From NCBI GenBank assembly GCA_017618055.1, contig JAFZVB010000005.1, forward strand, positions 3,136 through 67,135: 64,000 nt of DNA. The letters run 5' to 3'. The DNA is from Clostridia bacterium (GTDB lineage Bacteria; Bacillota; Clostridia; Christensenellales; CAG-917). Under the pieces are notes generated by a model. That model saw only the letters and a list, made by a program, of their open reading frames with translations. It ran no database searches and was not told the origin of the DNA. Position numbers and translations under genes: made by a program. Positions 5,154 to 53,526 of this stretch are shown in pieces. Position 1 is the first letter of the stretch; each line of letters starts with the position of its first letter.

Positions 5154-5166
5154 AATTCCTCCTTGC

Positions 5167-37905: not shown

Positions 37906-37993
37906 GCCGGCGTGGTGAAATTGGCAGACGCGCTGGACTCAAAATCCTGTGGGCTCAAAACCCGTGTCGGTTCGAGTCCGACCGCCGGCACCA
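37906..37993 (+). tRNA. tRNA-Leu(CAA)
   Basis: GCCGGCG/CGCCGGC acceptor stem, anticodon loop CT-CAA-AA, long variable arm, GGTTCGAGTCC, encoded CCA. Confidence 0.97.
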
Positions 37994-37997
37994 GCAC

Positions 37998-38030
37998 AAA
38001 AAAAATACCCTCATTGCGAGGGTATATTTT
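37998..38030. terminator. Bidirectional terminator between the tRNA and the WYL gene
   Basis: A-tract, ataccctc-attgc-gagggtat stem, T-rich tail; lies between convergent genes. Confidence 0.8.
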
Positions 38031-38044
38031 AATATTTCTGACGT

Positions 38045-39031
38045 TTATTTGTTTTTATACTTTTCATATTGTTGAAAAATTATTTTAGATACTTCATCTT
38101 TTAACCATTCTGGTTCTAAAACTTCGCAATCTGTTCCAAATCCTAAAACAAACTTAATGGTATTATAACGATAATGCATGTCGCATTCTAATATTGTTGT
38201 ATCTTTGTCTATAGGTGTAACAATTTGATTCTGTCCATAAATATATTCCTTAATATACATAGCAGGTCTTCCTGTGAATTTAAGCTTGATATGCACCCAT
38301 TCTCCTGCTATTTTTTCATCATTTGAAGATGTCCAATCTGTGCCACCCTTTAAACCTTCTTCATCAATGTATTCCCTTTCATTATAATAAATTGGTATAC
38401 GAAATTTATCATTCTGTATTTCTAAACTTTCTATTCTATTTAATTTAAAATACAACACCTTTTGCATAGTTTCACAAAATGCCAATACAAACCATGCATT
38501 ATTATAAATAAATAATTTATAAGGACGAATAATCCTTTCACGAACAACGTTGTCATTTGATAAAAAGGCTATCTTCAATTTCGTCCTAGAATTAATACAA
38601 TCCTCTATTATTTGATACCTTTTATTTATCTCATCAACAGGCATAGATAGTGTTACACCTGGTATAATAAAAGTTGGTTGAGGAGGAGGCAATTCTTCAA
38701 TTGAGGAAAGTACTTTTGAAATTGAGGTTTGATAGAGTTTTGTATCTATCAAACTTCCTCTAGCTACTAAATGATCTACACTTATTTGTAGTATTTTCTT
38801 TTCCTCGTCTGTTAATTTCAGACTAGGCATTGTTCCCGAACGATCTAGTTTATACCCACCATATTTGCCAGGAATACTAATTATATAATAGCCTGCTTCT
38901 TCAAGTTCTTTTTTATATTCAATAACATTTCGTGGGTATGTTTCTAAAAGGTCTGCCAATTCTGAAATCTTATACACGCGACCAGATTTTAAAATCTGAA
39001 GCATTAGAATACACATCGCAGCTTTTCCCAT
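38045..39031 (-). CDS. HTH-WYL(-WCX) transcriptional regulator
   Basis: N-term wHTH (ELADLLET..RNV...L...GY.I...G..GGY.L); WYL core R.IRPY.L......WFVLAFC...YFKLNRI; C-term VLGFG..CEVLEP.WL. ATG 39031 preferred over TTG 39037 from the GGAG RBS position. Confidence 0.93.
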   Translation of the reverse strand: MGKAAMCILMLQILKSGRVYKISELADLLETYPRNVIEYKKELEEAGYYIISIPGKYGGYKLDRSGTMPSLKLTDEEKKILQISVDHLVARGSLIDTKLYQTSISKVLSSIEELPPPQPTFIIPGVTLSMPVDEINKRYQIIEDCINSRTKLKIAFLSNDNVVRERIIRPYKLFIYNNAWFVLAFCETMQKVLYFKLNRIESLEIQNDKFRIPIYYNEREYIDEEGLKGGTDWTSSNDEKIAGEWVHIKLKFTGRPAMYIKEYIYGQNQIVTPIDKDTTILECDMHYRYNTIKFVLGFGTDCEVLEPEWLKDEVSKIIFQQYEKYKNK

Positions 39032-39105
39032 AAACAATTCTCCATAATAATCATTTTAAATTATTATAGCAATTAATCATTTATTTTTCTATATATCTAA
39101 AATAA

Positions 39106-39246
39106 CTATTTTCTCTTGATGCCTGTATCGCTTCTCTTAGCGTGCCACTGTCCATTCAAGTTTCTGGAACGATTCATTCCAGCTGTAGGACCAGTCTTCA
39201 CTACAGGACCATGAGTATATCTAGGTGAAATTCCAAATATTCTCAT
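39106..39246 (-). CDS. Small basic protein, 46 aa (below the ORF-track cut-off)
   Basis: AGGAGG RBS, then MRIFGISPRYTHGPVVKTGPTAGMNRSRNLNGQWHAKRSDTGIKRK*; starts 12 bp after the upstream stop. Confidence 0.75.
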   Translation of the reverse strand: MRIFGISPRYTHGPVVKTGPTAGMNRSRNLNGQWHAKRSDTGIKRK

Positions 39247-39258
39247 ACTCTTACCTCC

Positions 39259-39747
39259 TTATTTATTTTTTGGTTTTTTAGATGGGATAGAATACATCTT
39301 TCTCATGTAATCTCCCCAAGGATCGTATACGGGTTTACCAGATGGAGTAGGCATCCCATACTTATAATGCATATAGTCGTTCCAATCAAAATTATTAATT
39401 GATGGTGTGTTATTAGTTATTGGTGTTGGTTTTGCTTGATGTGGGACACGCTGTCTTACTCCCTGTCTCTTCTTTGGTGTAAAATAACTACTTGTTGCCC
39501 TCATTATTTCAAGGTACCTTTGAACTTTTTGTACATCAATTGGAGTAATTTGAATTACACCTGCTAGGCCATGGCAAACATCATCTCTCTTAGTTATCAA
39601 TGCCTTTAGTTCATCCCTTTCATTTATAGTAAGAACACCTCTATTAAAAGCTTGATCTGCCCATTCTTTACCACATCTCCTAATAATACTTTGAGCAAGA
39701 TTATTAATACGATTTACTATATTAACAAAATCATTCTGTTCGTTCAT
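39259..39747 (-). CDS. Putative HEPN-like protein with low-complexity C-terminal tail
   Basis: All-helical N-terminal ~85 aa with KRDDVCHG (Rx4H) after A..RGVL....RDEL..L; AAGGAG RBS. Confidence 0.55.
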   Translation of the reverse strand: MNEQNDFVNIVNRINNLAQSIIRRCGKEWADQAFNRGVLTINERDELKALITKRDDVCHGLAGVIQITPIDVQKVQRYLEIMRATSSYFTPKKRQGVRQRVPHQAKPTPITNNTPSINNFDWNDYMHYKYGMPTPSGKPVYDPWGDYMRKMYSIPSKKPKNK

Positions 39748-39764
39748 AAGCTTCTCCTTTTTTG

Positions 39765-41096
39765 TTATACAAAAACAAATTTATCAATAAAACAATAAAT
39801 TATTAACAATACTATATTTACTATTGTTGCGCCAAATCCAACCGCTGTTGGCATATCCATATCATCTAAGTAGGAAGAACTTATTGCCATTCCTACAATA
39901 GATGCAGGAGCTAACCAGTAGCATATAATTCTATAATCATTCTTAAGTGTAAATGCCAAAATATAGTTTAGTATCATGACTACTATTAAAATAATCGTTG
40001 TAGTTGTAGATGACTCAAGTGTAAACAAGTCATCCATTTGGTAACATATAAATAATGTACATATTGCTATAACTACAATTAAGCAAAAACTGATAACACA
40101 TTGTTCACCAACATAAGATAAGTTAGTTGGTGCGAATATACCATTAACATACAATGCAAAGAATATTAGAAGTATTATATTGCATATAAAAGTTATAATT
40201 GTAACAGCAATATATGTATCAACACACTCATACATTCCATAGAAGAAAAATGCTACTAAAGCAACAAATATATATGAAAACATCCAATAACAAATTGTGC
40301 TATATTTGTCTTTCAATATAAATGCTAGTGTGAAATTGAGCATTGCAATAACTGCAACATCAATAGGATATGATTCTCCTTCATCATCTGCGTTATAGCA
40401 TAATGCAAATATTCCACCAAGTAATATAAGTCCACCAATGCTACCAATAATATGTTGCCATTGATACCATTGTATACGCTTTCCAAATACTGCTAGAAGA
40501 ACAACTGCTACAATTACTACTGCGATTCCAATAATCCATGGCATTATAGTGAACGAATCTACACTACTTGTACTTGGACTACTAGAAGTCTGTGTTGTTT
40601 GAGTTACAGTTGTTGTATTATTTGTAGGTGCACTTGCCTGTGCAGGTGCTTGTTGTGCTACTGGATTTGTAGGCGCACTAGCCTTTTCATGCGTTTGCTG
40701 TACTACCGGCTTTGGTGTTGCTTTCTTATGCTCTGGTGGTTTCTTAACTTGTTGTGGTTTAGCTTTGACTTTATTCCCCGGATAATAACATCTGCCTTCA
40801 CATTGAATTATCTCTAATACAATATTAACTAAGGACATGTACTTCTTATAGTCAACTTTGTCTGATACTTTTTCATATTGGCTTACTATTATGGATGTAT
40901 CGTTATCATTTTCAATAATAGTCTTAAAGAATGAAACTTCCTTATCCATATTAAAGAATAAACTAGCTTTCTTCTTTTCAACAAAACTGTTGCCTATTAA
41001 ATCTGAGACACACCCAAATAGTACCAAAGGATCATATAGTTTGTTCATAGTTCTCTTAGATCTATAAACTTTAGCCAATGCTTCCTTAAATTCCAT
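39765..41096 (-). CDS. Membrane protein: soluble N-domain, P/Q/T-rich linker, ~9 TM helices including a duplicated 4-TM unit
   Basis: Hydrophobicity pattern; LNFTLAFILKDKYSTICYW recurs as LNYILAFTLKNDYRIICYW. Confidence 0.8.
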   Translation of the reverse strand: MEFKEALAKVYRSKRTMNKLYDPLVLFGCVSDLIGNSFVEKKKASLFFNMDKEVSFFKTIIENDNDTSIIVSQYEKVSDKVDYKKYMSLVNIVLEIIQCEGRCYYPGNKVKAKPQQVKKPPEHKKATPKPVVQQTHEKASAPTNPVAQQAPAQASAPTNNTTTVTQTTQTSSSPSTSSVDSFTIMPWIIGIAVVIVAVVLLAVFGKRIQWYQWQHIIGSIGGLILLGGIFALCYNADDEGESYPIDVAVIAMLNFTLAFILKDKYSTICYWMFSYIFVALVAFFFYGMYECVDTYIAVTIITFICNIILLIFFALYVNGIFAPTNLSYVGEQCVISFCLIVVIAICTLFICYQMDDLFTLESSTTTTIILIVVMILNYILAFTLKNDYRIICYWLAPASIVGMAISSSYLDDMDMPTAVGFGATIVNIVLLIIYCFIDKFVFV

Positions 41097-41105
41097 CAGA
41101 CACTC

Positions 41106-41906
41106 CTATTTATCAATAGATAATATCCCCAAAGAAACATCATCACCGATGCCTAATGTTAACCCAAGATCCGTTATAAACTGATCTATCTTCTCTCGGT
41201 TACCTTCCTTGAATAATTTGAGTACAGGGAAAATAAAACTCTTAGAAAAGTTATCTAGGTTCTGATATGGGTTCACAACACCATCTGTGCAAAGGAAGAT
41301 TGTACTAAAGTCACTTAAATCATAGATTTCCGCATTCAAATGTTTAAACGCATCTTCCTGGCACATCGAATAAGTGATATTAGCAACGGTTTCTTCGTCA
41401 TCTTCAAATAAGATTGGTGTTACATTGCCTCTCTTGATGCCGAACAATCCACCATCTCCTAAAGAGACACATAAGATTCTATTCCCTAATACCATTACGG
41501 CATTTAGTGTTGTACCATATGCTATTGTTGGATTAACTTTTAATCTAAATTGCTTGTCTTCATTGAGATGTGCAACTTCCTTAATTGATATAGGATGCTT
41601 GGATAAATCCTGTTCAACGAGCTTATTCCATTCGCACATAATCTCCAGTTTGATTCTATTGATGAAATCAGCCTTTTCCACTCTATACAACAATAGGTGG
41701 TGCTTCTCTTTCAATACATTCATAACTGCATCACAAGCAAACTTGCTTCCTCTGTCGCTTCTAACATAGATCTCCCCACCATGCCCATCGCAAACAGCCA
41801 TTATGGTCCTTTGCTCATCATGGTACACTTCGGAGAAATCTTGGCATACAATATCGTTCTTAACATGAGAGCGTCCTATTGCTGTCTTAACAAAATAATC
41901 AATCAT
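41106..41906 (-). CDS. PP2C-family protein phosphatase (TerY-P type)
   Basis: G.SH......CQD, VCDGHG, GTTL, LGDG, LCTDG, DDVS. Confidence 0.92.
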   Translation of the reverse strand: MIDYFVKTAIGRSHVKNDIVCQDFSEVYHDEQRTIMAVCDGHGGEIYVRSDRGSKFACDAVMNVLKEKHHLLLYRVEKADFINRIKLEIMCEWNKLVEQDLSKHPISIKEVAHLNEDKQFRLKVNPTIAYGTTLNAVMVLGNRILCVSLGDGGLFGIKRGNVTPILFEDDEETVANITYSMCQEDAFKHLNAEIYDLSDFSTIFLCTDGVVNPYQNLDNFSKSFIFPVLKLFKEGNREKIDQFITDLGLTLGIGDDVSLGILSIDK

Positions 41907-41907
41907 A

Positions 41908-42642
41908 TTACCACTCCCAATTATCTACATCATTTAATGATTCTTGTATTTGCATCTTTACATCAGCATGTACAGATTTAACGCTTTCCTTCTTAGCTCT
42001 TATTGCTGTATTTGTAGATTGCACTTTAGAAGTTGTTAAGATTATAATCTTAATGATCTTCTCTAATAGATTAGGATTATAACAAGTGATTACATCACCA
42101 TTAGATCCTACGAAATCTTTTAATACATCAATTGTTCTCTTGTCGTCCAATTCGATAGCTATTCCATATCTAATAGCCACATTGAACCAAGGAAGTTGTC
42201 TAAGAGCATTCATTTCATCCGTCAAAGGCCATCTACCTGGATGCCCATCTGTGAGCAAAAGGATTATTGGTGCGACACCACCGAAGTCTGGCATTATTCC
42301 GCCTTTCTTCTCCTTCTGCAACAAATCCTTAAGCTCAACGTATGCTAGATGTAAATTGGTTTGCCCACCAGCTTTAATTGGCTGGAAATCTAGGTCTTCA
42401 ACGTTCTTCATTCTATCATTGTTGTACAGATGTGCTTCTGTAGAAAATGTGATGATTGTAACATAGAAATCAACATTGGCATTTTCATTTTGCATATCTA
42501 TCAATTTATTCTTGATATCAGAAATAGCGTTGTTGACCTGTTGTATCCTATTGCCACCCATACTTTTGGATGTGTCCACAATTAGGATGACATTAAGACG
42601 TTGTTTGGCAATTCTATCTGTGTTCATTTTATCAGTATTCAT
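41908..42642 (-). CDS. vWA-domain protein, TerY-like (copy 2)
   Basis: MIDAS DTSKS, GGQT, LLTDG. Start reassigned to ATG 42642 (GGAG RBS, 1 bp after the upstream stop). Confidence 0.9.
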   Translation of the reverse strand: MNTDKMNTDRIAKQRLNVILIVDTSKSMGGNRIQQVNNAISDIKNKLIDMQNENANVDFYVTIITFSTEAHLYNNDRMKNVEDLDFQPIKAGGQTNLHLAYVELKDLLQKEKKGGIMPDFGGVAPIILLLTDGHPGRWPLTDEMNALRQLPWFNVAIRYGIAIELDDKRTIDVLKDFVGSNGDVITCYNPNLLEKIIKIIILTTSKVQSTNTAIRAKKESVKSVHADVKMQIQESLNDVDNWEW

Positions 42643-42643
42643 A

Positions 42644-43378
42644 TTACCACTCCACGTCTTCAACTTGTTGTAACTCTTCTGCAATTTGATTTTGAGCAAC
42701 AACATTGTTATCAGCAACTGCAGTTCCACCTTGTCCATTAGACCTTGTGGAATTAGACTTAACTTTTGAAGAAGTTACAGCAATAATCTTAATGACCTTA
42801 CGAAGTGCTTCTGCTGTATAGACCTTCAATACTGTCTCTGGCGTTCCTGTGAACTTGGTCAATACATCCATTGCTTCTGATGTATCAATACCGATTGCTA
42901 ATGCATACTTAAGTGCGCACTTGAACCAACCTTTCTTCTTCAATGACTCAAGACGCAATTCCCAATCTGGGCTTGTTGGCATGCCATCTGTCATAAGGAT
43001 AATGATTGGAGCAATACCACCTAAATCAGGCATCTTGCCACCACTTGATTGCTTGCTGAGGAACTTTGCTAACTTGGAATATGCTTCAGAAAGATTTGTA
43101 CCACCATCAGCATATAAATCTGTCCATTTAAAGTCCTCAACTGTCTTTGGCTCAGAATAAATCCATTCTGCATCATTACTAAACTTAAGTGCAGAAATCT
43201 TAATAAGTGCATCAGATGTATCATCTTGTATATCTGGCATAATGCTCATAACGTCTCTAATTGCATTATTTACAGCACCTAACTTTTCTCCATCCATGGA
43301 ACCTGAGTTATCAATAACGAATAGCAAATTTAATTCTTGGCGAGCTATTCCTTCGCCGATCATTCTATCATTGTTCAT
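42644..43378 (-). CDS. vWA-domain protein, TerY-like (copy 1)
   Basis: MIDAS DNSGS, GGTN, LMTDG.P; clear paralog of the downstream vWA (both end V..xEW). Confidence 0.92.
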   Translation of the reverse strand: MNNDRMIGEGIARQELNLLFVIDNSGSMDGEKLGAVNNAIRDVMSIMPDIQDDTSDALIKISALKFSNDAEWIYSEPKTVEDFKWTDLYADGGTNLSEAYSKLAKFLSKQSSGGKMPDLGGIAPIIILMTDGMPTSPDWELRLESLKKKGWFKCALKYALAIGIDTSEAMDVLTKFTGTPETVLKVYTAEALRKVIKIIAVTSSKVKSNSTRSNGQGGTAVADNNVVAQNQIAEELQQVEDVEW

Positions 43379-44663
43379 AAATTACTCCTATTGTCTCATC
43401 ACTAAATTTAACCTTTAGATCTTTGACTATTGGTATTACACCATTTGCTTGAATTGTTTTTTCTACGCCTTTGGAATCCTTAACTAAAATATCATGATTT
43501 AAGCTAACTTTAATTCCCCAGAGCGAAGGATTGTTCTTGTTTGCTATCACTACACCTACTTCTGTCAAATAATCCGAAGAATATTTGTCGATATGGTGTT
43601 TATATATCTTCTTGCCTAATTCTAGGACGATATATGACTTTCCTATTACTAGAACGGATAATTTCTTTGAATTAGCTCCACAATATGGACAAACTAGATT
43701 TGGCTTGTTCTCTGCTAATCCCTTAATATATTCAACGCCACACTTTGGACAGGATATTAACTCGTCTCTGTATCTGCATAGCTGTTTAATCCATTCTATC
43801 TCTGTTGTTCTTCCATTCTCTCTATCTTGAAGACCATCTACAAATGTACGATGGAATGCTTCCTTGATATAGGTTGGTAATGTTGGCCAGCGTTTCAATA
43901 CACTTGCGTGATATCCTCTAACAGGTCTGTTTGACTTATCTGTTTTGTGGTAAACAAAAAGTGGCTTTGTTCCATATAGTTCGAGCTCAGCCTTTTCATC
44001 TATGATGTTGTAGTTCTTAAGTCTCTCACCTTCAAATGGATTACCTAAACATAAAGTCATAAATAGTATTACTGCTAATGAGAATCTATCTGAATGTGTA
44101 TCTGGTAATGCATCGCCTCTTACAATTTCTGGAGCCATATACTTGATCTTACCAAGTACACCGAGATTCTTCTGATTTGCAGTAACATTATCGTTATCAC
44201 AGATAAGTAACTCCCCGGTATCTCCATCAAAGAAGAAGCTGCCATCATTTAAGTCTTGATATGAATATCCCATTTCATGCAACTTCTTGAATGAAGTACA
44301 AAGTTCTATACACCACTTAATCATAGTTTTTCTATCCTTGAATCCATCCTTTCCATTAAGGTAGGAAACAAATGAACTATAATTGTTTGGACGTAAATCC
44401 ATAAGATATCCAAAATTACCATCTTCTAATTCTACTAACTTCTTAGGCCATAAGAAGTTGTCTGATGGGCTACCCTTTTCAATGTTGCTTCTGAGATTAT
44501 TCTTGAAATCATCATATTGTATGTCCTTATATATCTTAAGAGCATATTTATTATGATCATAATCTACAAGATAAACCTCGCCTTGTCCGCCATCGCCAAG
44601 TAAGTCTAATACTTTCATAGTACTTCCATTGGACTTAATAATTTCATTTTTACTGAATTTCAT
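43368..44663 (-). CDS. Ser/Thr protein kinase with Zn ribbon (TerY-P type)
   Basis: LGDGGQGEVY, ALKIY, YQDLNDGS, CDNDN in place of DFG, YMAPE, DRFSLAV, CPKC..CPYC; start is ATG 44663 or GTG 44669. Confidence 0.92.
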   Translation of the reverse strand: MKFSKNEIIKSNGSTMKVLDLLGDGGQGEVYLVDYDHNKYALKIYKDIQYDDFKNNLRSNIEKGSPSDNFLWPKKLVELEDGNFGYLMDLRPNNYSSFVSYLNGKDGFKDRKTMIKWCIELCTSFKKLHEMGYSYQDLNDGSFFFDGDTGELLICDNDNVTANQKNLGVLGKIKYMAPEIVRGDALPDTHSDRFSLAVILFMTLCLGNPFEGERLKNYNIIDEKAELELYGTKPLFVYHKTDKSNRPVRGYHASVLKRWPTLPTYIKEAFHRTFVDGLQDRENGRTTEIEWIKQLCRYRDELISCPKCGVEYIKGLAENKPNLVCPYCGANSKKLSVLVIGKSYIVLELGKKIYKHHIDKYSSDYLTEVGVVIANKNNPSLWGIKVSLNHDILVKDSKGVEKTIQANGVIPIVKDLKVKFSDETIGVIYEQ

Positions 44664-44777
44664 TTTCACCTCATAAAAGATTTGTTTTGATGTTGCTTGT
44701 TAACCATACTAGATTTGATTAACGTTTGCCTATTTGTTGGTTGGCTACCTCCCTCATCACCTATATCATAAGCCTTA

Positions 44778-44798
44778 TTGTTACATTATTCGTGTATG
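44778..44798 (-). promoter_or_regulatory. Conserved 21-bp motif, copy 1
   Basis: TTGTTACATTATTCGTGTATG (+ strand); on the minus strand followed by 7 nt then TATGAT. Confidence 0.6.
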
Positions 44799-44888
44799 GT
44801 TATTAACTTTTTACAATAATTTTTTTGATTTAATGATATGCCGATTTGCTGGTTGGTTACCCACTCATCACCTATATCATAAACCAAA

Positions 44889-44909
44889 TTGTTACACTAT
44901 TCGTGTATG
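44889..44909 (-). promoter_or_regulatory. Conserved 21-bp motif, copy 2
   Basis: TTGTTACACTATTCGTGTATG, containing the palindrome TACAC-N5-GTGTA; 7 nt then TATGAT on the minus strand. Confidence 0.6.
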
Positions 44910-44913
44910 GTTG

Positions 44914-45468
44914 TTAACTTTTTACAATTTTTCTATTGCCAGTCTTAGCATTATAAATGCTAATAGGGAAAAACTTCCTTCCAGTCTCTCTCTCAAGACC
45001 CCTGAAAATGTTTCTGAATCTAGTAATTGGATCCTCTTGTCCCATAGTTACTTTCTTTAAGGCAAAATATGGTTCCCCATTATGAGACCAAGAACTATCA
45101 ACATGGGTAACTTCTCCATTTGAGCCTATCTCATAGATTTCGTTGTCATAACAAACAACAGCATAGAAATTGGCTTCTTGATTGTTAACCAATTGCCCAT
45201 ATTCAGAAGACTTATCCATAATATATGGAACAAGGAAATTCAATACTGTGTCATAATTCATATGCTTTGAAGTGACTTCTGGATCATACTTCATAAACTG
45301 AGTAATCATCGTTTGACTGCTGAAACAAATCAAAGACTTAGTTCCTTTGTCCCCGATACATATTGGAAGATTCTCCTCCAATAAAGCTTCTCCCTCTGTC
45401 ATAGATAGTTCACTACCAGAAGATATTGCTAAATAAACTGTGTCTTTACCTTTTAATGCTATATACAT
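44914..45468 (-). CDS. Proteasome-beta/HslV-like paralog 4 (degenerate, no Thr1)
   Basis: MYIALKGKDTVYLAIS, ENLP, VVCYDNEIYEI...EV, DP..R, FPISI; aligns by eye with the three upstream paralogs. Confidence 0.6.
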   Translation of the reverse strand: MYIALKGKDTVYLAISSGSELSMTEGEALLEENLPICIGDKGTKSLICFSSQTMITQFMKYDPEVTSKHMNYDTVLNFLVPYIMDKSSEYGQLVNNQEANFYAVVCYDNEIYEIGSNGEVTHVDSSWSHNGEPYFALKKVTMGQEDPITRFRNIFRGLERETGRKFFPISIYNAKTGNRKIVKS

Positions 45469-45471
45469 AGG

Positions 45472-46056
45472 CTAATCCTCCACTATATTGAAATGTAAAT
45501 CCTTTGTGTTCACTGTTATAAATGGCGCTTGAATATCATCAGTATTGCCACATGCATTCCTAAAACAATCTACAAGCTGTTCTTCAATGTCCTTATGTCT
45601 ATCTATCTCATGCAAATAAACCCTACTGAAGACCTTGAACTTGCCCATTGCAAAATACTGAAGTGATAATTCTACTTCATAATCACCATATATCTTAAAC
45701 GCCTTGTCCTTGTATGCTATGATTATGTTGCCAGCAAAACCCATTAGACCATCGTCACTTGAAGTCTCAACATCTGCATCATGGAATAAATCATGAATCT
45801 CTGGAATCAACACGCCAGTAACATAACTCATTGTTAAGTCTTTGTTTCTGTCTAACTTGAAAATACGAGAGTGTGAGAACAAGACTTGTCTTGCTGTACG
45901 ATCACCAATAAATCCGATTACTATACCATTCTTGAGTATCTTGAATGGATAGTTCTCTACTGTACGTTCTACTCTACGTATTCCATTAACATACGATGCA
46001 GTACTTGATGCTAAACTAACCTTGCCATCACTAATATAACCTATTATTGTATTCAT
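45472..46056 (-). CDS. Proteasome-beta/HslV-like paralog 3 (Asn at the Thr1 position)
   Basis: MNTIIGYISDGKVSLASS, ENYP.KILKNGIVIGFIG, IIIAYKDKAFKI, YFAMG, IQAPFITVNT. Confidence 0.68.
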   Translation of the reverse strand: MNTIIGYISDGKVSLASSTASYVNGIRRVERTVENYPFKILKNGIVIGFIGDRTARQVLFSHSRIFKLDRNKDLTMSYVTGVLIPEIHDLFHDADVETSSDDGLMGFAGNIIIAYKDKAFKIYGDYEVELSLQYFAMGKFKVFSRVYLHEIDRHKDIEEQLVDCFRNACGNTDDIQAPFITVNTKDLHFNIVED

Positions 46057-46068
46057 ATAGTTATCTCC

Positions 46069-46632
46069 TTATATAATAAGATCCGGTGCACTTGCTTTGG
46101 TATCTATTGTTGCTACTGGATAAGTCATATCGTTGTAATATGATGCATAACCCTCAAATGTATCAACGATCCTATCCTTTCCAGATAAATGCTTATTCTG
46201 AAGTAAGATTCCTGTGATGAATTCGTCTCTCAAATCTAGAACTGCGAAATTCTCGGCATCCTCAACATAGAAATCCCTATCTATCTTCCATATATTCTTG
46301 TCGTCTGCAATAATGATTCCCTCCATCCATAAATCACGCTCAAGTACACCCTCGTTAGATAGCTTATCCTTAACATAAGGAACAACTGTCTTAACAAGAT
46401 AATTGTGTGTAATCTTATGACCATTCATCATATGGAAGAATGCCTCATCTGTTAATAACACATCCGTAGATCTACAAGTTACTGGTGCTACTACTAATAC
46501 GTGACTATCCTCACACATCATAAGAGGTAGATTCTCTATATTCATTAAATACTCACGTTGATTTGTTGCTTCCAAAACCCAGTCACTCAAACCAATTGTT
46601 ACTCTATCTTTGTCCTTAAACGCTACTACCAT
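46069..46632 (-). CDS. Proteasome-beta/HslV-like paralog 2 (degenerate, no Thr1)
   Basis: MVVAFKDKDRVTIGLSD, ENLP, IIIADDKNIWKI..DFYV, FAV, YPVATIDT. Confidence 0.62.
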   Translation of the reverse strand: MVVAFKDKDRVTIGLSDWVLEATNQREYLMNIENLPLMMCEDSHVLVVAPVTCRSTDVLLTDEAFFHMMNGHKITHNYLVKTVVPYVKDKLSNEGVLERDLWMEGIIIADDKNIWKIDRDFYVEDAENFAVLDLRDEFITGILLQNKHLSGKDRIVDTFEGYASYYNDMTYPVATIDTKASAPDLII

Positions 46633-46634
46633 AC

Positions 46635-47192
46635 TTATCTTACCTCCTTGAAAGCCTTGTCTATGGTGTTAATAACTACATATGGTCCACCAACACCAGA
46701 ACAATTCTTGCTTGCAAACTTGCAAGCATTAATGATCCTATTCTCAGGATCGCCATCTTGCTTAGCCATGCTAGAATAAGCCATATTCTTACCACACCCA
46801 ATTGCGGCATACTCATTAACGCTATATACATTCCAATCTTGTGTCATCATATATAACTTGTCATCCTTAGCTAATAAAACCGAAACTGAAGAATCCCCCT
46901 TATTCAGTAAATCATGACTCTTCTGAAGTTCCTTAAGACGTGGGACAAACTCTCTAGCAATACTTGCTCTTGTAAAGCTTTCCTCTGCAAAACTGAAAAT
47001 ATCTTTGTCAGCCAAAACGAATGATTTAACACTAGCAAGTCCCGACATTGCGAATATCACTCCGTTTGGCATAAGATTAATCTTGCCATACTCATTTGGT
47101 TGATATGAGTCTGTGTATGTTCTTGTAGATACACATGTGTCTGCACATATAGTAACCATTCCATCATGTTTGATTCCTAAAACTACTGTCAT
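46635..47192 (-). CDS. Proteasome-beta/HslV-like Ntn threonine peptidase (apparently catalytic)
   Basis: Start reassigned to ATG 47192 (GGAGGA RBS), giving M-T1VVLGIK..G.VTICAD17T..GKI..GVIFAMSG..YAAIGCG..A..GVGGP. Confidence 0.82.
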   Translation of the reverse strand: MTVVLGIKHDGMVTICADTCVSTRTYTDSYQPNEYGKINLMPNGVIFAMSGLASVKSFVLADKDIFSFAEESFTRASIAREFVPRLKELQKSHDLLNKGDSSVSVLLAKDDKLYMMTQDWNVYSVNEYAAIGCGKNMAYSSMAKQDGDPENRIINACKFASKNCSGVGGPYVVINTIDKAFKEVR

Positions 47193-47211
47193 ATAGTAAT
47201 CCTCCGAAATA

Positions 47212-48354
47212 TTATGCTGCGTTACTCTTAATGCCATTGGCATTAATGTATTGCAACATGTTATCTAAGTCATCCTTCTGAACTGAAGAATGTGTTGCTT
47301 GGGTTGCTAACTCTAGATCTTGGATAGTAAGTTTTGTAGGTTTACCACTTTCAATCTCACGTTCGATTGCATAAACCTTAGCGAGCTCACATAACTCAAA
47401 TACATCCGCGCCATTATATCCTTCTGTTCTCTTGACGATTTCATCAATCATTATGCCAGACTCTTGTGGAACTTCTGCCAATGCTTGTTCAATAATCTGT
47501 CGTCTATCAGACTCATTAGGCAAGTTAACGTAAATCTTGCTTCCAAACCTTCCACTTCTCAAGAAAGCTGAATCAATATCCCATGGTCGGTTGGTTGCTG
47601 CTATAACTACAATATTGCTTTCCTTATGTTCCTCTAATCCCTGCATTTGTTGAAGCAACTCTGGGACAATACGATTCATTGCATTGTCTATAGTTCCGGA
47701 TCTCTTGGCACCTAAAGCCTCAAACTCATCAAAGAAGATGATTGCCCTTTGGTTCCTTCTAGCTTCAGCAAAATACTGCTTAACATTACTCTCGGATTCA
47801 CCCAACCACTTGGATAAAAGAGAGGAACAACTAATTGGTATAAACTTAGCATTGCAATCCCTTGCTATGGCTCTTGCAATCATTGTCTTACCTGTTCCAG
47901 GTAAACCATACAATAATATGCCACCACCAAATGCTTTCTTGAACTTTCTGTACTTACCAGGATATCTGATAGGATAGACAATCTTACGTTTGATTTCTAA
48001 CTTGACATCATCTAATCCTGCTACCTTGTCTATCTCATGTGTTGCCTTTGTTGGTTTGCATGGCTTAATATTGACACTGACACCCATAATGTCATCCTCA
48101 ATATGATTCATGTAGTCGTTATCTAAAACACTGGATACAGAACAACTCTTCTCAAGTAGTTGCTTTGCTTTGTTCACATACACTGCTTCCATCTGACTAT
48201 CTGACTTGGAACCGATACGTATCAACATGTCTGCTGCACATATCATAGATCGTCTTCCTTCATCGATTCTGTCATTGTTAAAGCAATACACTGCATGGCG
48301 GTAGAACTTAAGATAGTTCTCTTGTTGTACACTAATGTTACTTTCTTGTGGCAT
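47212..48354 (-). CDS. AAA+ ATPase, Vps4/CdvC-like, with N-terminal MIT-like helical domain
   Basis: VAGL..VK, Walker A GLPGTGKT, pore loop SKWLGESE, Walker B IFFDEFE, ATNRPWDIDSAFLR.GRF, C-term SSV...L; N-term three-helix pattern. Confidence 0.9.
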   Translation of the reverse strand: MPQESNISVQQENYLKFYRHAVYCFNNDRIDEGRRSMICAADMLIRIGSKSDSQMEAVYVNKAKQLLEKSCSVSSVLDNDYMNHIEDDIMGVSVNIKPCKPTKATHEIDKVAGLDDVKLEIKRKIVYPIRYPGKYRKFKKAFGGGILLYGLPGTGKTMIARAIARDCNAKFIPISCSSLLSKWLGESESNVKQYFAEARRNQRAIIFFDEFEALGAKRSGTIDNAMNRIVPELLQQMQGLEEHKESNIVVIAATNRPWDIDSAFLRSGRFGSKIYVNLPNESDRRQIIEQALAEVPQESGIMIDEIVKRTEGYNGADVFELCELAKVYAIEREIESGKPTKLTIQDLELATQATHSSVQKDDLDNMLQYINANGIKSNAA

Positions 48355-48391
48355 ATAGCCTCCTTCTAAATAAAATATCGTTAATAAGTGA

Positions 48392-48667
48392 TTAGCGTGA
48401 TCTTCTGAATCGCTTGTTCATAAAGATCATATTGTTCTCTCTCTCGCACTTAGGAATAAACACCTTGAGTTTCTCTGCTGTCTTCCTTAGTACTGGATCA
48501 TTCAAACCACGTTCAAGTGCTTCGTCTATAGATAAGCCAAGGCTAAATCTATTCTCCACACACTCTCTGTGGTGTTGTTTAAACAAATAATAATCTTCTC
48601 CGTTTGATCTAATGAAAAATACATCTTGTCCTTTGATGTTAGGTTTACAATACACTTTGTCTCTCAT
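48392..48667 (-). CDS. Hypothetical 91-aa protein, first gene of the AAA/proteasome-like operon
   Basis: GGAGGA RBS; co-oriented, 37 bp before the AAA gene; basic C-terminus. Confidence 0.75.
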   Translation of the reverse strand: MRDKVYCKPNIKGQDVFFIRSNGEDYYLFKQHHRECVENRFSLGLSIDEALERGLNDPVLRKTAEKLKVFIPKCERENNMIFMNKRFRRSR

Positions 48668-48753
48668 ACGCGTTATCCTCCGTTATTCCTAAAGTCTTGA
48701 ATGATTGAAATACTGCTAGTTGGGCAATACTCCCCACAAATATTTACGTGGAT

Positions 48754-48774
48754 TTGTTACACCATTTATGTATG
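48754..48774 (-). promoter_or_regulatory. Conserved 21-bp motif, copy 3
   Basis: TTGTTACACCATTTATGTATG, 18/21 identical to copy 2; ~87 bp upstream of the 91-aa gene. Confidence 0.6.
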
Positions 48775-48875
48775 AATATAAAAATCCCAAGCATTATTAA
48801 ATTTGTGTGCGACAAAAAATGCACAAATAATGTTTGTTTCATACATACGATTAATAATTACGATTGTTTGTTGAA

Positions 48876-48904
48876 AAATTGTTTTAAATTGTTTTAAATT
48901 GTTT
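48876..48904. repeat. 10-bp tandem repeat, ~3 copies
   Basis: AAATTGTTTT-AAATTGTTTT-AAATTGTTT. Confidence 0.8.
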
Positions 48905-48910
48905 CTAAGT

Positions 48911-48959
48911 ATCCTTGCAGTAACGACTCCCTTTACCTGCATTACTGTTCCTCAAGGAC
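48911..48959 (-). other. Candidate structured RNA element (bulged hairpin)
   Basis: Minus strand GTCCTTG-AGGAA-CAGTAAT-(16 nt)-GTTACTG-CAAGGAT; two positions pair as G-U only on the minus strand. Confidence 0.4.
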
Positions 48960-49135
48960 GGGCTAAATTGGTTGCTAAAATTAAAATAAAAATTTATGTT
49001 GTTTTGTTAAATATCATATTAAAAAAGGTACCCCCATTAATACGTTCAATTATGCTACTATTGTTTACTATATATTTATAATTTTTATAATTGGATTTAG
49101 TCGCAATCCAATACAAGAAACTTAAAAATAATAAA

Positions 49136-49156
49136 CCCTTATACAAAGTATAAGGG
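49136..49156 (-). terminator. Terminator after the RNA polymerase-like gene
   Basis: cccttatac-aaa-gtataaggg perfect 9-bp stem with U-rich tail on the minus strand. Confidence 0.75.
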
Positions 49157-49212
49157 AATTATGTAGTTTATTATTTTTTTGAATAATTTATTGAATATTT
49201 CTTAAAAATTCT

Positions 49213-51903
49213 TTATGATCTCAAATCAAAGAAATAATCGAATATTTGGATTTGTCCGTCCAGTTCTTCTGTAAATGTTGGTAGCTTTTTATTCTTATCC
49301 TTTGAGCGTTTTAATAAGGCAGCAAAGACTGCATTATTTGGTTGGAATAAGATTGATACAACTAGCCATATTCCATTATCCTTATTTCCTTTTTTATCTG
49401 TTATTTTGCCTTGACTTACCTTTTCTAATACCTTCTTTAAAACTGATTCTCTTTTCAATATTTTATTAATTTGCTCACTATAATCATTTCGGATTGATAC
49501 TATATCTTTTTGTATAACTTCCTTACTATATTCATCCTTTGAATTGCTAAGTTCATGTTGCAAAGAAGAATTTGTTGCCTTAAATGTATTACAAATTTCA
49601 ACGATATCATTTATTTTATTATAATCATTTCTTGTTAATACTTCGTCTGTCCATACAAACAAATCTTCTAATTGTATTTTTGTGGTCATTATTCTTTCGC
49701 TATTATAATTAACAAATTCATGAATAGCCTTATTGATATAATCCATTGTTGTCTTATGCTCAACATATGGCTTTTTACTATCACCTTTGCCCTTTATATC
49801 TTTAAAGAATTGAGGTTCAGTTTGAAGAATTTCCTCATGATCAATTAGTAATTTTGTAATAATTGATGATGAGTCTATTCCATAGCTTCGCTTTGCCTTA
49901 TCTATTTCCATACCAGATAAAACTGCAAGAATACATATATCGTTATACAATTTTTTTACATCATCGCTATCAAGTGCTTGCCCCGAGTTAACCATATCCC
50001 ATAATTTACTATTTAATCTTTGAGACAAATTAACAATTATTCCAGTATTATCATTTGATAATTTGGTATCAATTACATCTAAAGACTCACCTTTTACTGA
50101 TACTGGTTTTATATGACAATATGGAACTTTAAAGAATTTATATTGCTCTTTTGTTGTTTTTACAATCACAGGATCATTTGTAATCAACATCGCATCGGAA
50201 TCATAATCGCATCCATTCAATCTTTGTTGAATGTTATCTCCTATTGCATTTACACAAACAACATTATCACCCAAAGTAAAGTATTCCCAAATCCCATCTG
50301 TTTTGTAATTATTTGTAACAGAATACAAGTTGCCCATTGTAATGTGTGGAGATCTTGCGCAAACCAATTCCTCTCCATCTTTAAATTTTTCAATTCTAAC
50401 CTCTCCAGGCTTTAATTCACTTTTGCCATCAAATTTGCCAACAGTTTGACGAAGCATTTCTGGACCATTCCCAAATAAAGTTGCATTAGTTCCATTAATC
50501 AAGAAGTGCCCTTCATATAATCTATCTTTCATTGCATCAACCAAATCATACATTAAATCACTAAATAATTGTGTATTGGCAAAATCACTATTAACTTTTA
50601 ATAGACTAAGAATCGAACCGGCACGGAAAGCAAGACTTTCTTCTTTTGAATCATCCTCGTCAAAAGAAAAATTATCTTTTTCACGATTTGTAAGGTGCTC
50701 AAAATAATAATTCATTATAGCTGGTTCACTTCTTATCCAACTGATAAATGCTGCGTGTTTCTTTACTAATGTTTCTGCTTCTTCTTTTGTAAAATGCAAA
50801 GTATTCAGGAATTGATAACTTGTTTGAACCATTCTTCCATCAAAGAACCTTGTTCTCTTATCACATTTAACAATACCAAATGTATTATCAACATATTTAG
50901 CCCACTTTCTAATATTATCTTCTGTTAATCCACCTTTTAAAAATTTAAGGTATTTCAAACTGTTTGGAGTGGTAACCATAACAATATCTTCTACTTTTGA
51001 AGCTAAAGTCACTCCTCCGAATTCCTTTAGTTGCTCTACTTTAGTAATATTGTTGTCTTTAAACCATTTTTGCAATTTTGTTCTAAATCCACAAGACTTA
51101 AAGAACTTGTTACGCAATAATAACATATGTTTATTGACTAGGTTCTTAGTAAACAAACTCTCGTCCAAAAGAGCTTCACCATCCCATATATCATTTCTAA
51201 TTTCTTCCTGTTTTTCAGTAGCGACCAAAGTATTATCTTTTTTTTCTATAGATACTACATTATCTGTAAATTCTATTACTTGATCATTTATAAATAATAT
51301 GCTACTAATTGGTATTTTTATTAATCCATTTATAGAACTAAGTGACAATGATTGATATGCTTCAAATGAAACTATATCTAATTTCTTTGGAGATAATCCA
51401 CATCTGCTCCATTTGTTCATCTTCGCATATAATTTTTTCAATATAAACAAGCACCTACCATCTCTACTATTGCTAGCACTTCTTTTATATCTAACATATT
51501 CTTTACCATTTATTTTAAAACCATCTTCATATAATCTTGTTCTAAGTTTTGCTGTATCTAATATCACATCACCATAAGTAATATTTGTTTTACCATCATC
51601 AGTTTTTTCTTTTGATAAAATTTCTTTATATGTGTACTTAAAAGAAACACTGACTACGGCCAATGTATATTTAAAACCATACTTATCTACTTGATAGAAG
51701 TTGTCCTTTTTTGCATTTTCTGGATTATATATTTTGTGAAGTTGTATCGTATCTAAAGACCAATCCAAAGTATTTCTAAATTTTTTGTAATAGGCTCTTG
51801 AACCTTTTTTAGGTAGTTTGTATCCTTTTTTAGAATCACTATCCATACCACGACAAATGTCACAAGCTTCTAATGAGAGAATTCTATATTGTTCTAATTC
51901 CAT
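49213..51903 (-). CDS. YonO-like / eukaryotic-RdRP-like two-barrel single-subunit RNA polymerase
   Basis: Ordered motifs WDGEAL, LLRNKFFKS, TPNSLKY, SYQFLNTL, ARSPH, QRLNGCDYDSD (DxDxD), TGIIVN, EIDKAK match the RdRP/YonO motif series. Confidence 0.85.
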   Translation of the reverse strand: MELEQYRILSLEACDICRGMDSDSKKGYKLPKKGSRAYYKKFRNTLDWSLDTIQLHKIYNPENAKKDNFYQVDKYGFKYTLAVVSVSFKYTYKEILSKEKTDDGKTNITYGDVILDTAKLRTRLYEDGFKINGKEYVRYKRSASNSRDGRCLFILKKLYAKMNKWSRCGLSPKKLDIVSFEAYQSLSLSSINGLIKIPISSILFINDQVIEFTDNVVSIEKKDNTLVATEKQEEIRNDIWDGEALLDESLFTKNLVNKHMLLLRNKFFKSCGFRTKLQKWFKDNNITKVEQLKEFGGVTLASKVEDIVMVTTPNSLKYLKFLKGGLTEDNIRKWAKYVDNTFGIVKCDKRTRFFDGRMVQTSYQFLNTLHFTKEEAETLVKKHAAFISWIRSEPAIMNYYFEHLTNREKDNFSFDEDDSKEESLAFRAGSILSLLKVNSDFANTQLFSDLMYDLVDAMKDRLYEGHFLINGTNATLFGNGPEMLRQTVGKFDGKSELKPGEVRIEKFKDGEELVCARSPHITMGNLYSVTNNYKTDGIWEYFTLGDNVVCVNAIGDNIQQRLNGCDYDSDAMLITNDPVIVKTTKEQYKFFKVPYCHIKPVSVKGESLDVIDTKLSNDNTGIIVNLSQRLNSKLWDMVNSGQALDSDDVKKLYNDICILAVLSGMEIDKAKRSYGIDSSSIITKLLIDHEEILQTEPQFFKDIKGKGDSKKPYVEHKTTMDYINKAIHEFVNYNSERIMTTKIQLEDLFVWTDEVLTRNDYNKINDIVEICNTFKATNSSLQHELSNSKDEYSKEVIQKDIVSIRNDYSEQINKILKRESVLKKVLEKVSQGKITDKKGNKDNGIWLVVSILFQPNNAVFAALLKRSKDKNKKLPTFTEELDGQIQIFDYFFDLRS

Positions 51904-51912
51904 ATACCACCC

Positions 51913-53526
51913 CTATATCTTATGATATTCTTTTATTTCTCCGAGACTATTTGTAAACATAATCTCTATATCGCCATCTTTAATCTCTATTGCTGTTCCA
52001 GTAAATTGGTATCCAAATAGAGTTTCAAATCTCATATTTTCGTCATTACGTAATGAACCAAGTACAAGTGGGAAACTAGCAATATTTTTACCTTTAACCT
52101 TACTATCTTGAGCAGTTGCAACTTCACCAGGAGCAAAATACTTGGTTGTATGAGAATGACCACACATCATAAAATCAATATTCATATCTTCTAGATATGT
52201 TAAAATCTCTCTCATTGGCTCCCCACCAAATTTTTCTATAGATATTGGGAATGCCTCATGACATACTGCGATTCTATATTTAATAGAAGGGTCATCAAAT
52301 AAACCACTATCTTTAATAGATTTCACCCACTTTGCCTCGTCCTTTCTATATTGCTCATAGTCTCCAACATCTTTTGCAACTGTTCTTGCATCTTTGTCCA
52401 AATTTCCTATATCTAACACTATGAATGCTATATCCCCAACCTTAACTGTGTAATAGAATGTATTGTCTCTAGATGCATACCAAATTGGTAAATTAACTAG
52501 TTGAGATCCAACTGCTTCATGGTTTCCTCTGCTAAGTATAACAGGCACAGAGCCATTTGTAATATTTCCAACTAATCTGTACATATTCTTAATCTGCCAA
52601 TCTTCAGAAACATCATTGAGATGATCTCCATTTGCAATTAATATATCTAATTTGTCTCCATAATAAGATGCTGCTCTTTGTGGTCCGGTTCTATATAGAT
52701 GGTTGTCACTAATATTGTATATTTGTATTCCATCATCAAAGTTTATTGGTCTAAATGTATAGTCTTTAGAAACTGTGGAAGTTCTAATTGGATAATATGC
52801 TCTATTATGAGAAACACCATAGGAAACAACTTTATAGTTGTTATTGTTATCTAAAATCTCTCTTGGAATAGTTACTTTATGTAATGTAGAACAGTTTAAT
52901 GCTCCCGCATATGAATCATAATATTTTTCATCCCCTATCTCAATATATCCTGCTGTTGTTGTAGATGTGCTCCAGCAAATCTGATACTCATCCTCTACCA
53001 TATACACCGCTGCTTTGGTATCAAAGAAAACAGGTTGCAAGTTGAATACACCAAATACAAATGCACATGCAATAACAAATCCTATAACACTAGCTAGAAT
53101 CAGCTTGGTTCTCTTGTCAAAACTCTCCCTTTTAACAAATACAATTAGAGCAATAATTATTAGTATAACCAATAAATATGGGAACATCTCAATTGTAAAA
53201 TAAACCAATTTAGAAAGATATGCCGCTAACATTACAAAAATAAGAATACACCAAATTATTCCTAATGCTGCACTACAAATCTCAACAACAGAATTCTTAA
53301 AGAATATTCTATTTATTGTAAACAATAAAAATGGAATAAAAACAACTGTTCCAAATAATGCTGGAATGAAATATGCAGTATAGTACATTGGATTGTACAA
53401 AGTATTCCATAAACTATAAAAGAAAATGATAGGTGCTAATGTTAAAAATAGACATAAAATCCATAACTTATGCCTATTAATAAATACATAGATGTCTCTA
53501 ATCTTTTGCTTTACCAATTCTTTCAT
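51913..53526 (-). CDS. Membrane-anchored metallophosphoesterase (purple acid phosphatase-like)
   Basis: About 5 N-terminal TMs, FN3-like region, SDNH, NGD, RGNHE, CH, GHSH. Confidence 0.88.
   Translation of the reverse strand: MKELVKQKIRDIYVFINRHKLWILCLFLTLAPIIFFYSLWNTLYNPMYYTAYFIPALFGTVVFIPFLLFTINRIFFKNSVVEICSAALGIIWCILIFVMLAAYLSKLVYFTIEMFPYLLVILIIIALIVFVKRESFDKRTKLILASVIGFVIACAFVFGVFNLQPVFFDTKAAVYMVEDEYQICWSTSTTTAGYIEIGDEKYYDSYAGALNCSTLHKVTIPREILDNNNNYKVVSYGVSHNRAYYPIRTSTVSKDYTFRPINFDDGIQIYNISDNHLYRTGPQRAASYYGDKLDILIANGDHLNDVSEDWQIKNMYRLVGNITNGSVPVILSRGNHEAVGSQLVNLPIWYASRDNTFYYTVKVGDIAFIVLDIGNLDKDARTVAKDVGDYEQYRKDEAKWVKSIKDSGLFDDPSIKYRIAVCHEAFPISIEKFGGEPMREILTYLEDMNIDFMMCGHSHTTKYFAPGEVATAQDSKVKGKNIASFPLVLGSLRNDENMRFETLFGYQFTGTAIEIKDGDIEIMFTNSLGEIKEYHKI

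Follow-up and report, generated by a model that had tools for sequence, protein, structure and literature searches.

Among described enzymes, the closest to the gene considered here are YonO, of the Bacillus phage SPbeta, and the RNA-dependent RNA polymerases (RdRPs) of eukaryotic RNA interference (RNAi), such as QDE-1 and RDR2. YonO transcribes the late genes of SPbeta, and processive DNA-templated RNA synthesis is demonstrated for YonO alone (PMC5467207). According to PMC2919709, the two-barrel polymerases share eight invariant residues (in QDE-1: D709, R738, K743, R962, P964, D1007, D1009 and D1011), and PMC7824862 speaks of 'transposon relatives' of RdRPs, to which the elements of the sister clade described below correspond. 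Two papers, of 2010 and 2017 (PMC2919709, PMC5467207), have described YonO-like genes standing alone in firmicute chromosomes, and the kind of gene is therefore already known. Here we examine one such gene, on the minus strand of a 64,000-nucleotide stretch of contig JAFZVB010000005.1 of a Clostridia bacterium (this whole stretch is called the window), and find that it is a deep-branching, very divergent but otherwise ordinary member of the known family. Our preferred explanation, which we regard as probable, is that it is the stranded polymerase of a mobile element, left in a mosaic, defence-like island and possibly still active. An earlier reading made from the DNA letters alone (the sequence-only reading) had taken it for a solitary polymerase domesticated by the host.

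The polymerase gene and its protein

The gene, the parts of its protein discussed below and the signals around it are as follows (nt, nucleotides; aa, amino acids).

49213 to 51903, minus strand: gene for a YonO-family single-subunit two-barrel RNA polymerase, 896 aa (open reading frame, phrog_8308, hhalign, structure model, Foldseek)
51079 to 51327, minus strand: first beta-barrel region, residues ~193-275, with D241, D247, R264 and K269 (strand-rich segment of the model)
50179 to 50502, minus strand: second beta-barrel region, residues ~468-575, with RSPH at 517-520 and the Mg-binding loop (model; the RSPH aligns with that of YonO)
50194 to 50208, minus strand: catalytic loop D566-Y-D568-S-D570 (aligned with DNDGD of YonO)
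49136 to 49156, minus strand: intrinsic-terminator-like hairpin, 57 nt past the polymerase stop codon, with a 9-bp stem, a 3-nt loop and a T-rich tail
51904 to 51915, minus strand: junction at which the phosphoesterase stop codon and a GGGGTGG ribosome-binding site lie ahead of the polymerase ATG
51913 to 53526, minus strand: membrane metallophosphoesterase gene (Pfam Metallophos; 69-85% identical in 3/3 congeners)

The open reading frame (ORF) starts with ATG and runs for 896 codons with zero internal stops. Its motifs follow one another as DG (241), RNKFFK (264-269), SLKY (315), QFLNTL (364), RSPH (517), GCDYDSD (564-570), GIIVN (621) and IDKAK (667), so that every motif listed by the sequence-only reading is present in the order it gave, on the minus strand, a detail it had left out. 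The terminator it described is also there, as the hairpin and T-rich tail at 49156-49136. The gene is single copy in the genome (1.58 Mb, 28 contigs).

What kind of protein this is becomes clear only beyond plain sequence searches. The polymerase matches phrog_8308 (E 1.4e-85), whose function is unassigned in PHROGs, and no family in Pfam, NCBIfam or PADLOC; in Pfam nothing matches at E <= 0.01, hence not the eukaryotic RdRP family either. Searches of PDB sequences with the protein or with the family profile give nothing meaningful, and BLASTP against YonO is not significant (E 0.22, ~21% identity). The family itself is large, with 2016 proteins at E <= 0.001 among 8000 scored candidates and 1075 representatives (at 50% identity) under the same threshold. 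A profile of a 45-sequence family alignment, A1, when compared by hhalign with SPbeta YonO (gene sequence taken from AF020713), matches over 530 columns with a probability of 99.2% and E 8.9e-20, and places RSPH, the Asp loop and the IDKAK helix in register. The AlphaFold2 model (pLDDT 88.7, pTM 0.89) has 21 Foldseek matches at E <= 0.001, of which every one shown is maize or Arabidopsis RDR2 or fungal QDE-1 (best E 1.4e-15, TM 0.36-0.50, ~850-1000 columns); the weaker matches that follow are largest subunits of cellular RNA polymerases. The relation to eukaryotic RdRPs is thus visible only through profile-profile comparison and fold, and the profile search that the sequence-only reading had proposed comes out positive for YonO and negative for the RdRP family of Pfam. 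That reading would have given up its family assignment for a structure without double-psi barrels; the model instead predicts two strand-rich blocks around the motifs, and its RDR2 and QDE-1 matches extend over the whole length.

The catalytic residues can be followed one by one. By motif spacing and the YonO alignment, the counterparts of the eight invariant residues are D241 (or D247), R264, K269, R517, P519, D566, D568 and D570, with the spacings R-x4-K and R-x-P the same as in QDE-1. In A1 they never vary, and 138-139 of 139 homologues have them; all 28 invariant columns of A1 are kept in the window protein. The metal loop reads DYDSD and not DxDGD, as the sequence-only reading had correctly remarked, but the Ser is shared by all 139 homologues, 70 viral and 69 non-viral, while SPbeta YonO has DNDGD. 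D566 is found in 138/139 homologues, and D568, S569 and D570 in 139/139. Since the three Asp are kept, the Ser is, as judged from these alignments, a signature of the subfamily and not the loss of a site, and it is a hallmark that the window gene shares with its relatives. With the limits of the barrels read from the secondary structure of the model, two barrel domains and a single active site are predicted. Together these results show that the window protein is a YonO/RdRP-type two-barrel polymerase with the full set of catalytic residues.

The comparison with the two described relatives can be put as follows. With YonO the protein is homologous over ~530 columns, within which RSPH, the Asp loop and the IDxAK helix fall; the two are of similar length (839 aa in YonO), and in neither are sigma-binding or trigger-loop regions expected. 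They differ in belonging to separate branches of the family and in setting: YonO lies in a prophage with its late genes, whereas the window polymerase lies outside any prophage and has no late genes to transcribe. QDE-1 and RDR2 are the best whole-length structural matches of the model (E 1e-15, TM 0.45-0.50) and share the same eight active-site residues, but are only 10-14% identical to it, and the window has no RNAi partner near the gene. By analogy with YonO, the enzyme would make RNA on a DNA template, using two Mg ions and no host sigma factor.

Upstream, the polymerase ATG is 10 nt past the stop codon of the phosphoesterase gene, and this stop overlaps the GGGGTGG ribosome-binding site. 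A terminator scan finds none between the two genes, and the best sigma-70-like site nearby (53563-53534, 11/12 in a consensus scan) lies ahead of the phosphoesterase gene. Because of this junction, the lack of an intervening terminator and the position of the promoter-like site, as far as such consensus scans can tell, the two genes probably form one transcript.

Relatives of the polymerase in mobilizable elements and viruses

Homologues are scarce among the relatives of the window organism. Among 40 other relatives, three carry one (G018 at 49% identity, G020 as a fragment at a contig end, G035 as a weak match), and among 398 other genomes of the class five do (E <= 1e-20). In a collection of phage records 9 match the polymerase at 21-38% identity. 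Of 581 pattern-matched stretches in IMG/VR, 520 hold a gene for a relative, and identity is 32-41% for the best 80; a metagenome scan gives 283 relatives, and here the best 80 are 43-51% identical over nearly the full length. A single-sequence scan of genome contigs adds 4 loci. For 166 loci we called ORFs, clustered the 2728 proteins (crude ORF calls, single linkage) and read the gene orders, with several neighbour families annotated from one representative each.

A FastTree phylogeny of 139 distinct full-length homologues (midpoint-rooted, with 18 duplicates and 9 sequences shorter than 740 aa excluded) divides the family into two parts. The 70 IMG/VR sequences form one clade (support 0.999), and the sister group of the window protein (support 0.996) consists of 66 metagenome and genome sequences. 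For the sister group, 43 of the 80 metagenome loci are informative, in that they have at least 5 kb downstream of the polymerase.

Among these 43 loci, large serine recombinases (Resolvase plus Recombinase domains; phrog_95) are present in 35 and tyrosine integrases in 4, with one or the other in 38. In 22 loci a MobA/VirD2 relaxase lies behind a NikA-like protein and ahead of TnpV; in 16 there is a protein that matches no Pfam family and is closest to Atlas clusters of MobL relaxases (score 0.98), which we treat as a lead only. Counting both kinds, the polymerase is just upstream of the relaxase in 38/43. The cargo upstream of the polymerase includes a type III restriction-modification pair, Shedu, a NERD-UvrD helicase, a radical SAM protein and a MORC-like ATPase. 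Since relaxase and integrase genes each accompany the polymerase in 38 of the 43, these loci are mobilizable elements and not prophages. In the gut-metagenome elements of L010 and L114-L185, the polymerase is fixed between defence cargo and the NikA/relaxase/TnpV/serine-recombinase module. The viral clade looks different: its commonest neighbours are homologous to genes of SPbeta-like phages, and of its 60 loci with at least 5 kb downstream, 24 have an integrase nearby and none a relaxase. The sequence-only reading had said that closest homologues all sitting in prophages would count against it; this was wrong in kind, as the nearest clade sits in relaxase/recombinase elements.

The polymerases of the sister-clade elements, which belong to gut Firmicutes, resemble that of the window in sequence (43-51% identity), in an N-terminal extension and in the DYDSD loop. 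They differ in company: there the NikA, relaxase, TnpV and recombinase genes come after the polymerase and defence cargo before it, whereas the window has no mobility genes. A bold reading of the sister clade would make its polymerase a priming or transcribing enzyme that acts on the transferred single-stranded DNA of the elements; a role of this sort would explain why the gene keeps its fixed place before the relaxase.

Broken copies of the gene occur in several places. In a Coprobacillaceae chromosome (L009, 10001-11954) the polymerase is spread over several frames, G367:C4:25152-27130 has an internal TAA, and the metagenome loci L161, L171 and L184 have split ORFs.

The island and the operon downstream of the polymerase

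We compared 19.9 kb around the polymerase with three genomes of the same genus. In all three, homology ends at 37993-38038, after an M20 peptidase gene and tRNA-Leu(CAA) that are both kept, and restarts at 51914-51985, in the phosphoesterase gene; in between, the congeners hold 1-2.3 kb, including an unrelated gene of ~303 aa. Because homology stops and resumes at these points in 3/3 congeners, we place the island at ~38039-51912 and treat the phosphoesterase gene as a conserved flank outside it. The sequence-only reading had noticed neither the tRNA at the island edge, nor the lack of the island in congeners, nor the tight junction of the polymerase with the phosphoesterase gene. Besides the polymerase, the parts of this region are:

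38039 to 51912, no strand: strain-specific island, 13.9 kb, between the breaks in congener homology
37906 to 37993, plus strand: tRNA-Leu(CAA), at the left edge of the island (Rfam)
38045 to 41096, minus strand: genes for a WYL-domain regulator, a 162-aa protein and a 443-aa membrane protein (Pfam WYL/WCX)
41106 to 44669, minus strand: TerY-P-type triad, with a Ser/Thr kinase with zinc ribbon, two von Willebrand factor A (vWA) proteins and a PP2C phosphatase (Pfam)
44914 to 47243, minus strand: four tandem paralogous proteasome/HslV-like genes, 184, 194, 187 and 202 aa (Pfam Proteasome for the 202-aa protein; paralogy)
47212 to 48354, minus strand: classical AAA+ ATPase, Cdc48/PAN/FtsH-like and IetA-like in PADLOC (Pfam, PADLOC, NCBIfam)
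48392 to 48667, minus strand: s91, a 91-aa protein of an unnamed family and first gene of the operon downstream of the polymerase (homologues in five loci)

Read along the minus strand, the order is polymerase, a 545-nt spacer, s91, the AAA+ gene, the four proteasome-like genes, a 244-nt spacer, the kinase, the two vWA genes and PP2C, the 443-aa and 162-aa genes and the WYL regulator. The G+C content at third codon positions is not even along this series. It is 0.206 in the polymerase and 0.205-0.22 in the WYL, 162-aa and 443-aa genes, with host core genes at 0.21-0.27, and it rises to a foreign-looking 0.29-0.38 in the block from PP2C to s91 (41106-48667). As third-position G+C splits the island into parts, the island is a mosaic, and the block of the TerY-P triad with the AAA+, proteasome-like and s91 genes suggests one separately acquired unit.

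The missing island and the thin spread of homologues show that the polymerase was horizontally acquired and is absent from close relatives. They also leave the notion of a domesticated host polymerase unsupported: the island is missing from all three congeners, homologues are as thinly spread over relatives and class as described above, and the sister clade sits in mobilizable elements.

As the sequence-only reading held, there is no prophage around the gene. A Pfam scan of 50 window ORFs finds no capsid, terminase, portal, integrase, relaxase, replication or lysis gene, and the flanks of the island are housekeeping genes (enolase, M20 peptidase, pyrophosphatase, TyrRS, ValRS, aconitase). The backbone of a mobilizable element, with relaxase and recombinase beside the polymerase, is likewise found in the window by neither Pfam nor tblastn; a tblastn of all non-polymerase proteins of the 166 loci against the window hits nothing beyond the AAA and the 91-aa protein, without any remnant of a relaxase or recombinase. 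Direct repeats resembling att sites at the island ends are only short and imperfect, none of them convincing. At gathering scores Rfam finds tRNA only in the whole window, and the 545-nt spacer therefore holds no known RNA.

Within the genus, what lies between tRNA-Leu and the phosphoesterase gene varies. At this place the congeners have the ~303-aa gene, which has no homologue in the window, together with genes of 179 or 418 aa (L103, 2465-3942; L104, 2156-4444; L105, 825-1736), and G003 also has no enolase gene at this locus. Far from the island, at 786-10500 on the minus strand, two giant ORFs stand side by side, the first of 1465 aa without a Pfam family and the second of 1777 aa with four MBG (YGX-type) domains; these are probably surface proteins.

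The operon itself begins with s91. Its family has 170 clusters in the protein collection, no name and no Pfam family; the proteins are ~100-115 aa long with a basic tail, one of 400 other genomes of the phylum has one, and IMG/VR gives no relative. The predicted s91 structure (pLDDT 83) has three strands plus helices and no fold match in PDB at E <= 0.001. A complex prediction for polymerase and s91 scores 0.00, which is no verdict for or against binding. An s91 homologue is found in L194 at 9680-9991. The AAA protein matches IetA models (PADLOC E 2.6e-36), with an NCBIfam score of 118 against a cut-off of 510; we rejected an Iet defence system, as the score is below this cut-off and the locus has proteasome-like genes where the IetS subtilase would be.

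Behind the AAA+ ATPase, the four proteasome-like paralogues are 19-22% identical to one another, with BLASTP links at E 1e-10 to 1e-3. The 202-aa ORF (46635-47243, minus strand) probably starts at Met18 (MT..., with the Thr exposed) and would then encode 185 aa; this is where five of five relatives start, and with it the overlap with the AAA gene disappears. A Thr stands at or near the mature N-terminus in two of the four proteins and not in the other two. The nearest ESM Atlas clusters of the proteasome-like protein are mostly viral. An IMG/VR search with the proteasome-like alignment gives no relative, and the only phage matches are distant ones in three large phages (four records), with an uninformative neighbourhood in Geobacillus virus E3. 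Four such genes also occur at a contig start in G448. At 44753-44938, in the spacer before the kinase gene, a 75-nt sequence stands in two direct copies that are 88% identical and 111 nt apart, the second overlapping the 3' end of the 184-aa proteasome-like gene.

The last part of the block has the composition of a TerY-P triad, described in PMC11090510 as a vWA protein, a PP2C phosphatase and a Ser/Thr kinase with a C-terminal zinc ribbon. Here Pfam finds VWA twice, PP2C_2, Pkinase and a weak zinc-ribbon match; in PADLOC, run on the kinase and one vWA protein, the kinase matches kinase models of other systems and the vWA protein nothing. In G900, s91 heads an operon of vWA, PP2C, kinase and Upf1-like helicase genes, and s91 may therefore be a common head gene of TerY-P-type conflict systems. 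A 1050-aa protein of G900 was considered as a polymerase and rejected (hhalign 1.7%), being a Upf1/Sen1-like helicase; two further G900 proteins have no PDB match.

How closely the polymerase belongs to this operon can be judged from the loci of its relatives. The AAA+ ATPase and an s91 homologue come directly after the polymerase in L107, L109, L116, L144 and L171, and L108 ends inside the AAA gene. Counted over the 80 metagenome loci, AAA is beside the polymerase in 6 and s91 in 5, and both are present in 5/5 loci of the basal clade with enough downstream sequence. The L107-type cassette reads DNA methyltransferase, polymerase, AAA fused to an M41 protease, s91-like gene and ADP-ribosylglycohydrolase, between host core genes (DnaE and phosphofructokinase in L107; threonine synthase and an iron ABC transporter in L109). 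These cassette loci form one clade, basal in the sister group of the window protein, so that a polymerase beside s91 and an ATP-dependent protease is found on both sides of a split of ~45% identity. The cassette and the window are alike in that the polymerase adjoins a classical AAA+ ATPase and an s91-family protein. They differ in that the gene order is swapped, in the fused M41 domain there against four proteasome-like genes here, and in the methyltransferase and glycohydrolase, found only there, and the TerY-P triad, found only here. The kinase, vWA, PP2C and proteasome-like genes have no homologue in any of the 166 loci. The data argue for a real, though not obligatory, link of polymerase, s91 and AAA+ protease. 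The proposal of the sequence-only reading that the polymerase serves the adjacent operons therefore survives in one part, the recurrence of AAA+ and s91 beside basal-clade polymerases, and loses ground in another, as a terminator intervenes and the other operon genes recur at 0/166 loci; a link unique to this genome, which it had named as grounds for doubt, is false for AAA and s91 and true for all other genes of the operon.

This link is the basis of the best-surviving rival to our preferred explanation, namely that the polymerase functions within a conflict module, for defence or counter-defence, alongside s91 and the AAA+ protease machine, and either transcribes this module when host transcription is compromised or makes an RNA that the module uses. 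The adjacency just described speaks for it; the M41 domain in place of proteasome-like genes looks like a swap for a functional analogue, core genes of the host surround the five-gene cassette in two or more distinct settings, and s91 is so rare that adjacency arising twice by chance is unlikely. Yet between the polymerase and s91 there are a terminator and 545 nt, and 38 of the 43 informative sister-clade loci are without AAA or s91. G900 (99% complete) has the s91 operon and G448 (87% complete, the cluster at a contig start) the four proteasome-like genes, but a family profile search finds no polymerase in either. The best relatives elsewhere reach 80% identity for s91 and 91% for the proteasome-like protein, whereas the polymerase has none above ~49-51%, and its third-position G+C is unlike that of s91 and AAA. 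On these grounds we think the conflict module unlikely. Its fuller version, an old three-part module preserved across the deep split in the family, in which a host-independent polymerase would drive the effector operon under host shut-off or make an RNA that arms the protease system, we hold to be equally doubtful.

Competing accounts and their meaning for the family

There are two further accounts. It could be a decaying relic without present function, intact owing to recent acquisition or recent loss of the element. In favour of this are the broken copies in L009, G367, L161, L171 and L184 and the lack of any element backbone in the window. The window gene itself, however, has an intact 896-aa frame, all invariant family columns, a good ribosome-binding site and a terminator, and its host-like third-position G+C suggests long residence without decay, which makes the relic quite improbable. 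The other account makes it the late-gene polymerase of a cryptic prophage like SPbeta, in the manner of YonO in Bacillus subtilis. In its favour are the abundance of the family in phages, the phrog_8308 match and the known role of YonO (PMC5467207), but the account is close to refuted and hardly credible: the 50 scanned ORFs include no gene for structure, lysis, integration or replication, the island is only 13.9 kb long and bounded by core genes, and the protein falls outside the viral clade.

We return to the stranded mobile-element polymerase. It would have come from the non-phage branch of the YonO family, whose members are backbone genes of integrative mobilizable elements and stand directly upstream of the relaxase, a few genes from the large serine recombinase. 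In the window the element backbone would have been lost, leaving the polymerase alone at the edge of the 13.9-kb island at tRNA-Leu. There it appears transcriptionally fused to the end of the conserved host phosphoesterase gene and closed by its own terminator, so that it may be expressed through read-through from the phosphoesterase promoter. Its present role would then be accessory, either as a leftover polymerase of the element or in the service of the s91/AAA+ protease cassette, and not a core function of the host.

Several observations weigh against this explanation. With no relaxase, recombinase or direct repeat in the island, the status of a stranded backbone gene is inferred from relatives only. 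The polymerase is host-like in third-position G+C and the block from PP2C to s91 is foreign, so that the polymerase may predate its neighbours. The recurrence of AAA+ and s91 beside the basal-clade polymerase argues for a working module and not a leftover. Finally, the branch of the window protein is long (1.03) and its identity to any relative is ~49-51% at most, and the context of the window gene therefore need not follow that of the sister clade.

In the open-licence texts of PMC and bioRxiv we did not find in print the fixed pre-relaxase position of this clade's polymerase in serine-recombinase elements, although the homologue lists of PMC2919709 and PMC5467207 may include members. The same holds there for the cassette of polymerase, AAA+ protease and s91 and for the s91 family, some of which published homologue tables may list.

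For the family as a whole, the nearest chromosomal copies of this polymerase are backbone genes of relaxase/serine-recombinase elements with defence cargo and not host genes, and in one lineage the polymerase is accompanied by an AAA+ protease and a small protein without a name. If a role in conjugative DNA processing or in a defence cassette is true, it would be a new job for a family that also yielded the eukaryotic RNAi polymerases.

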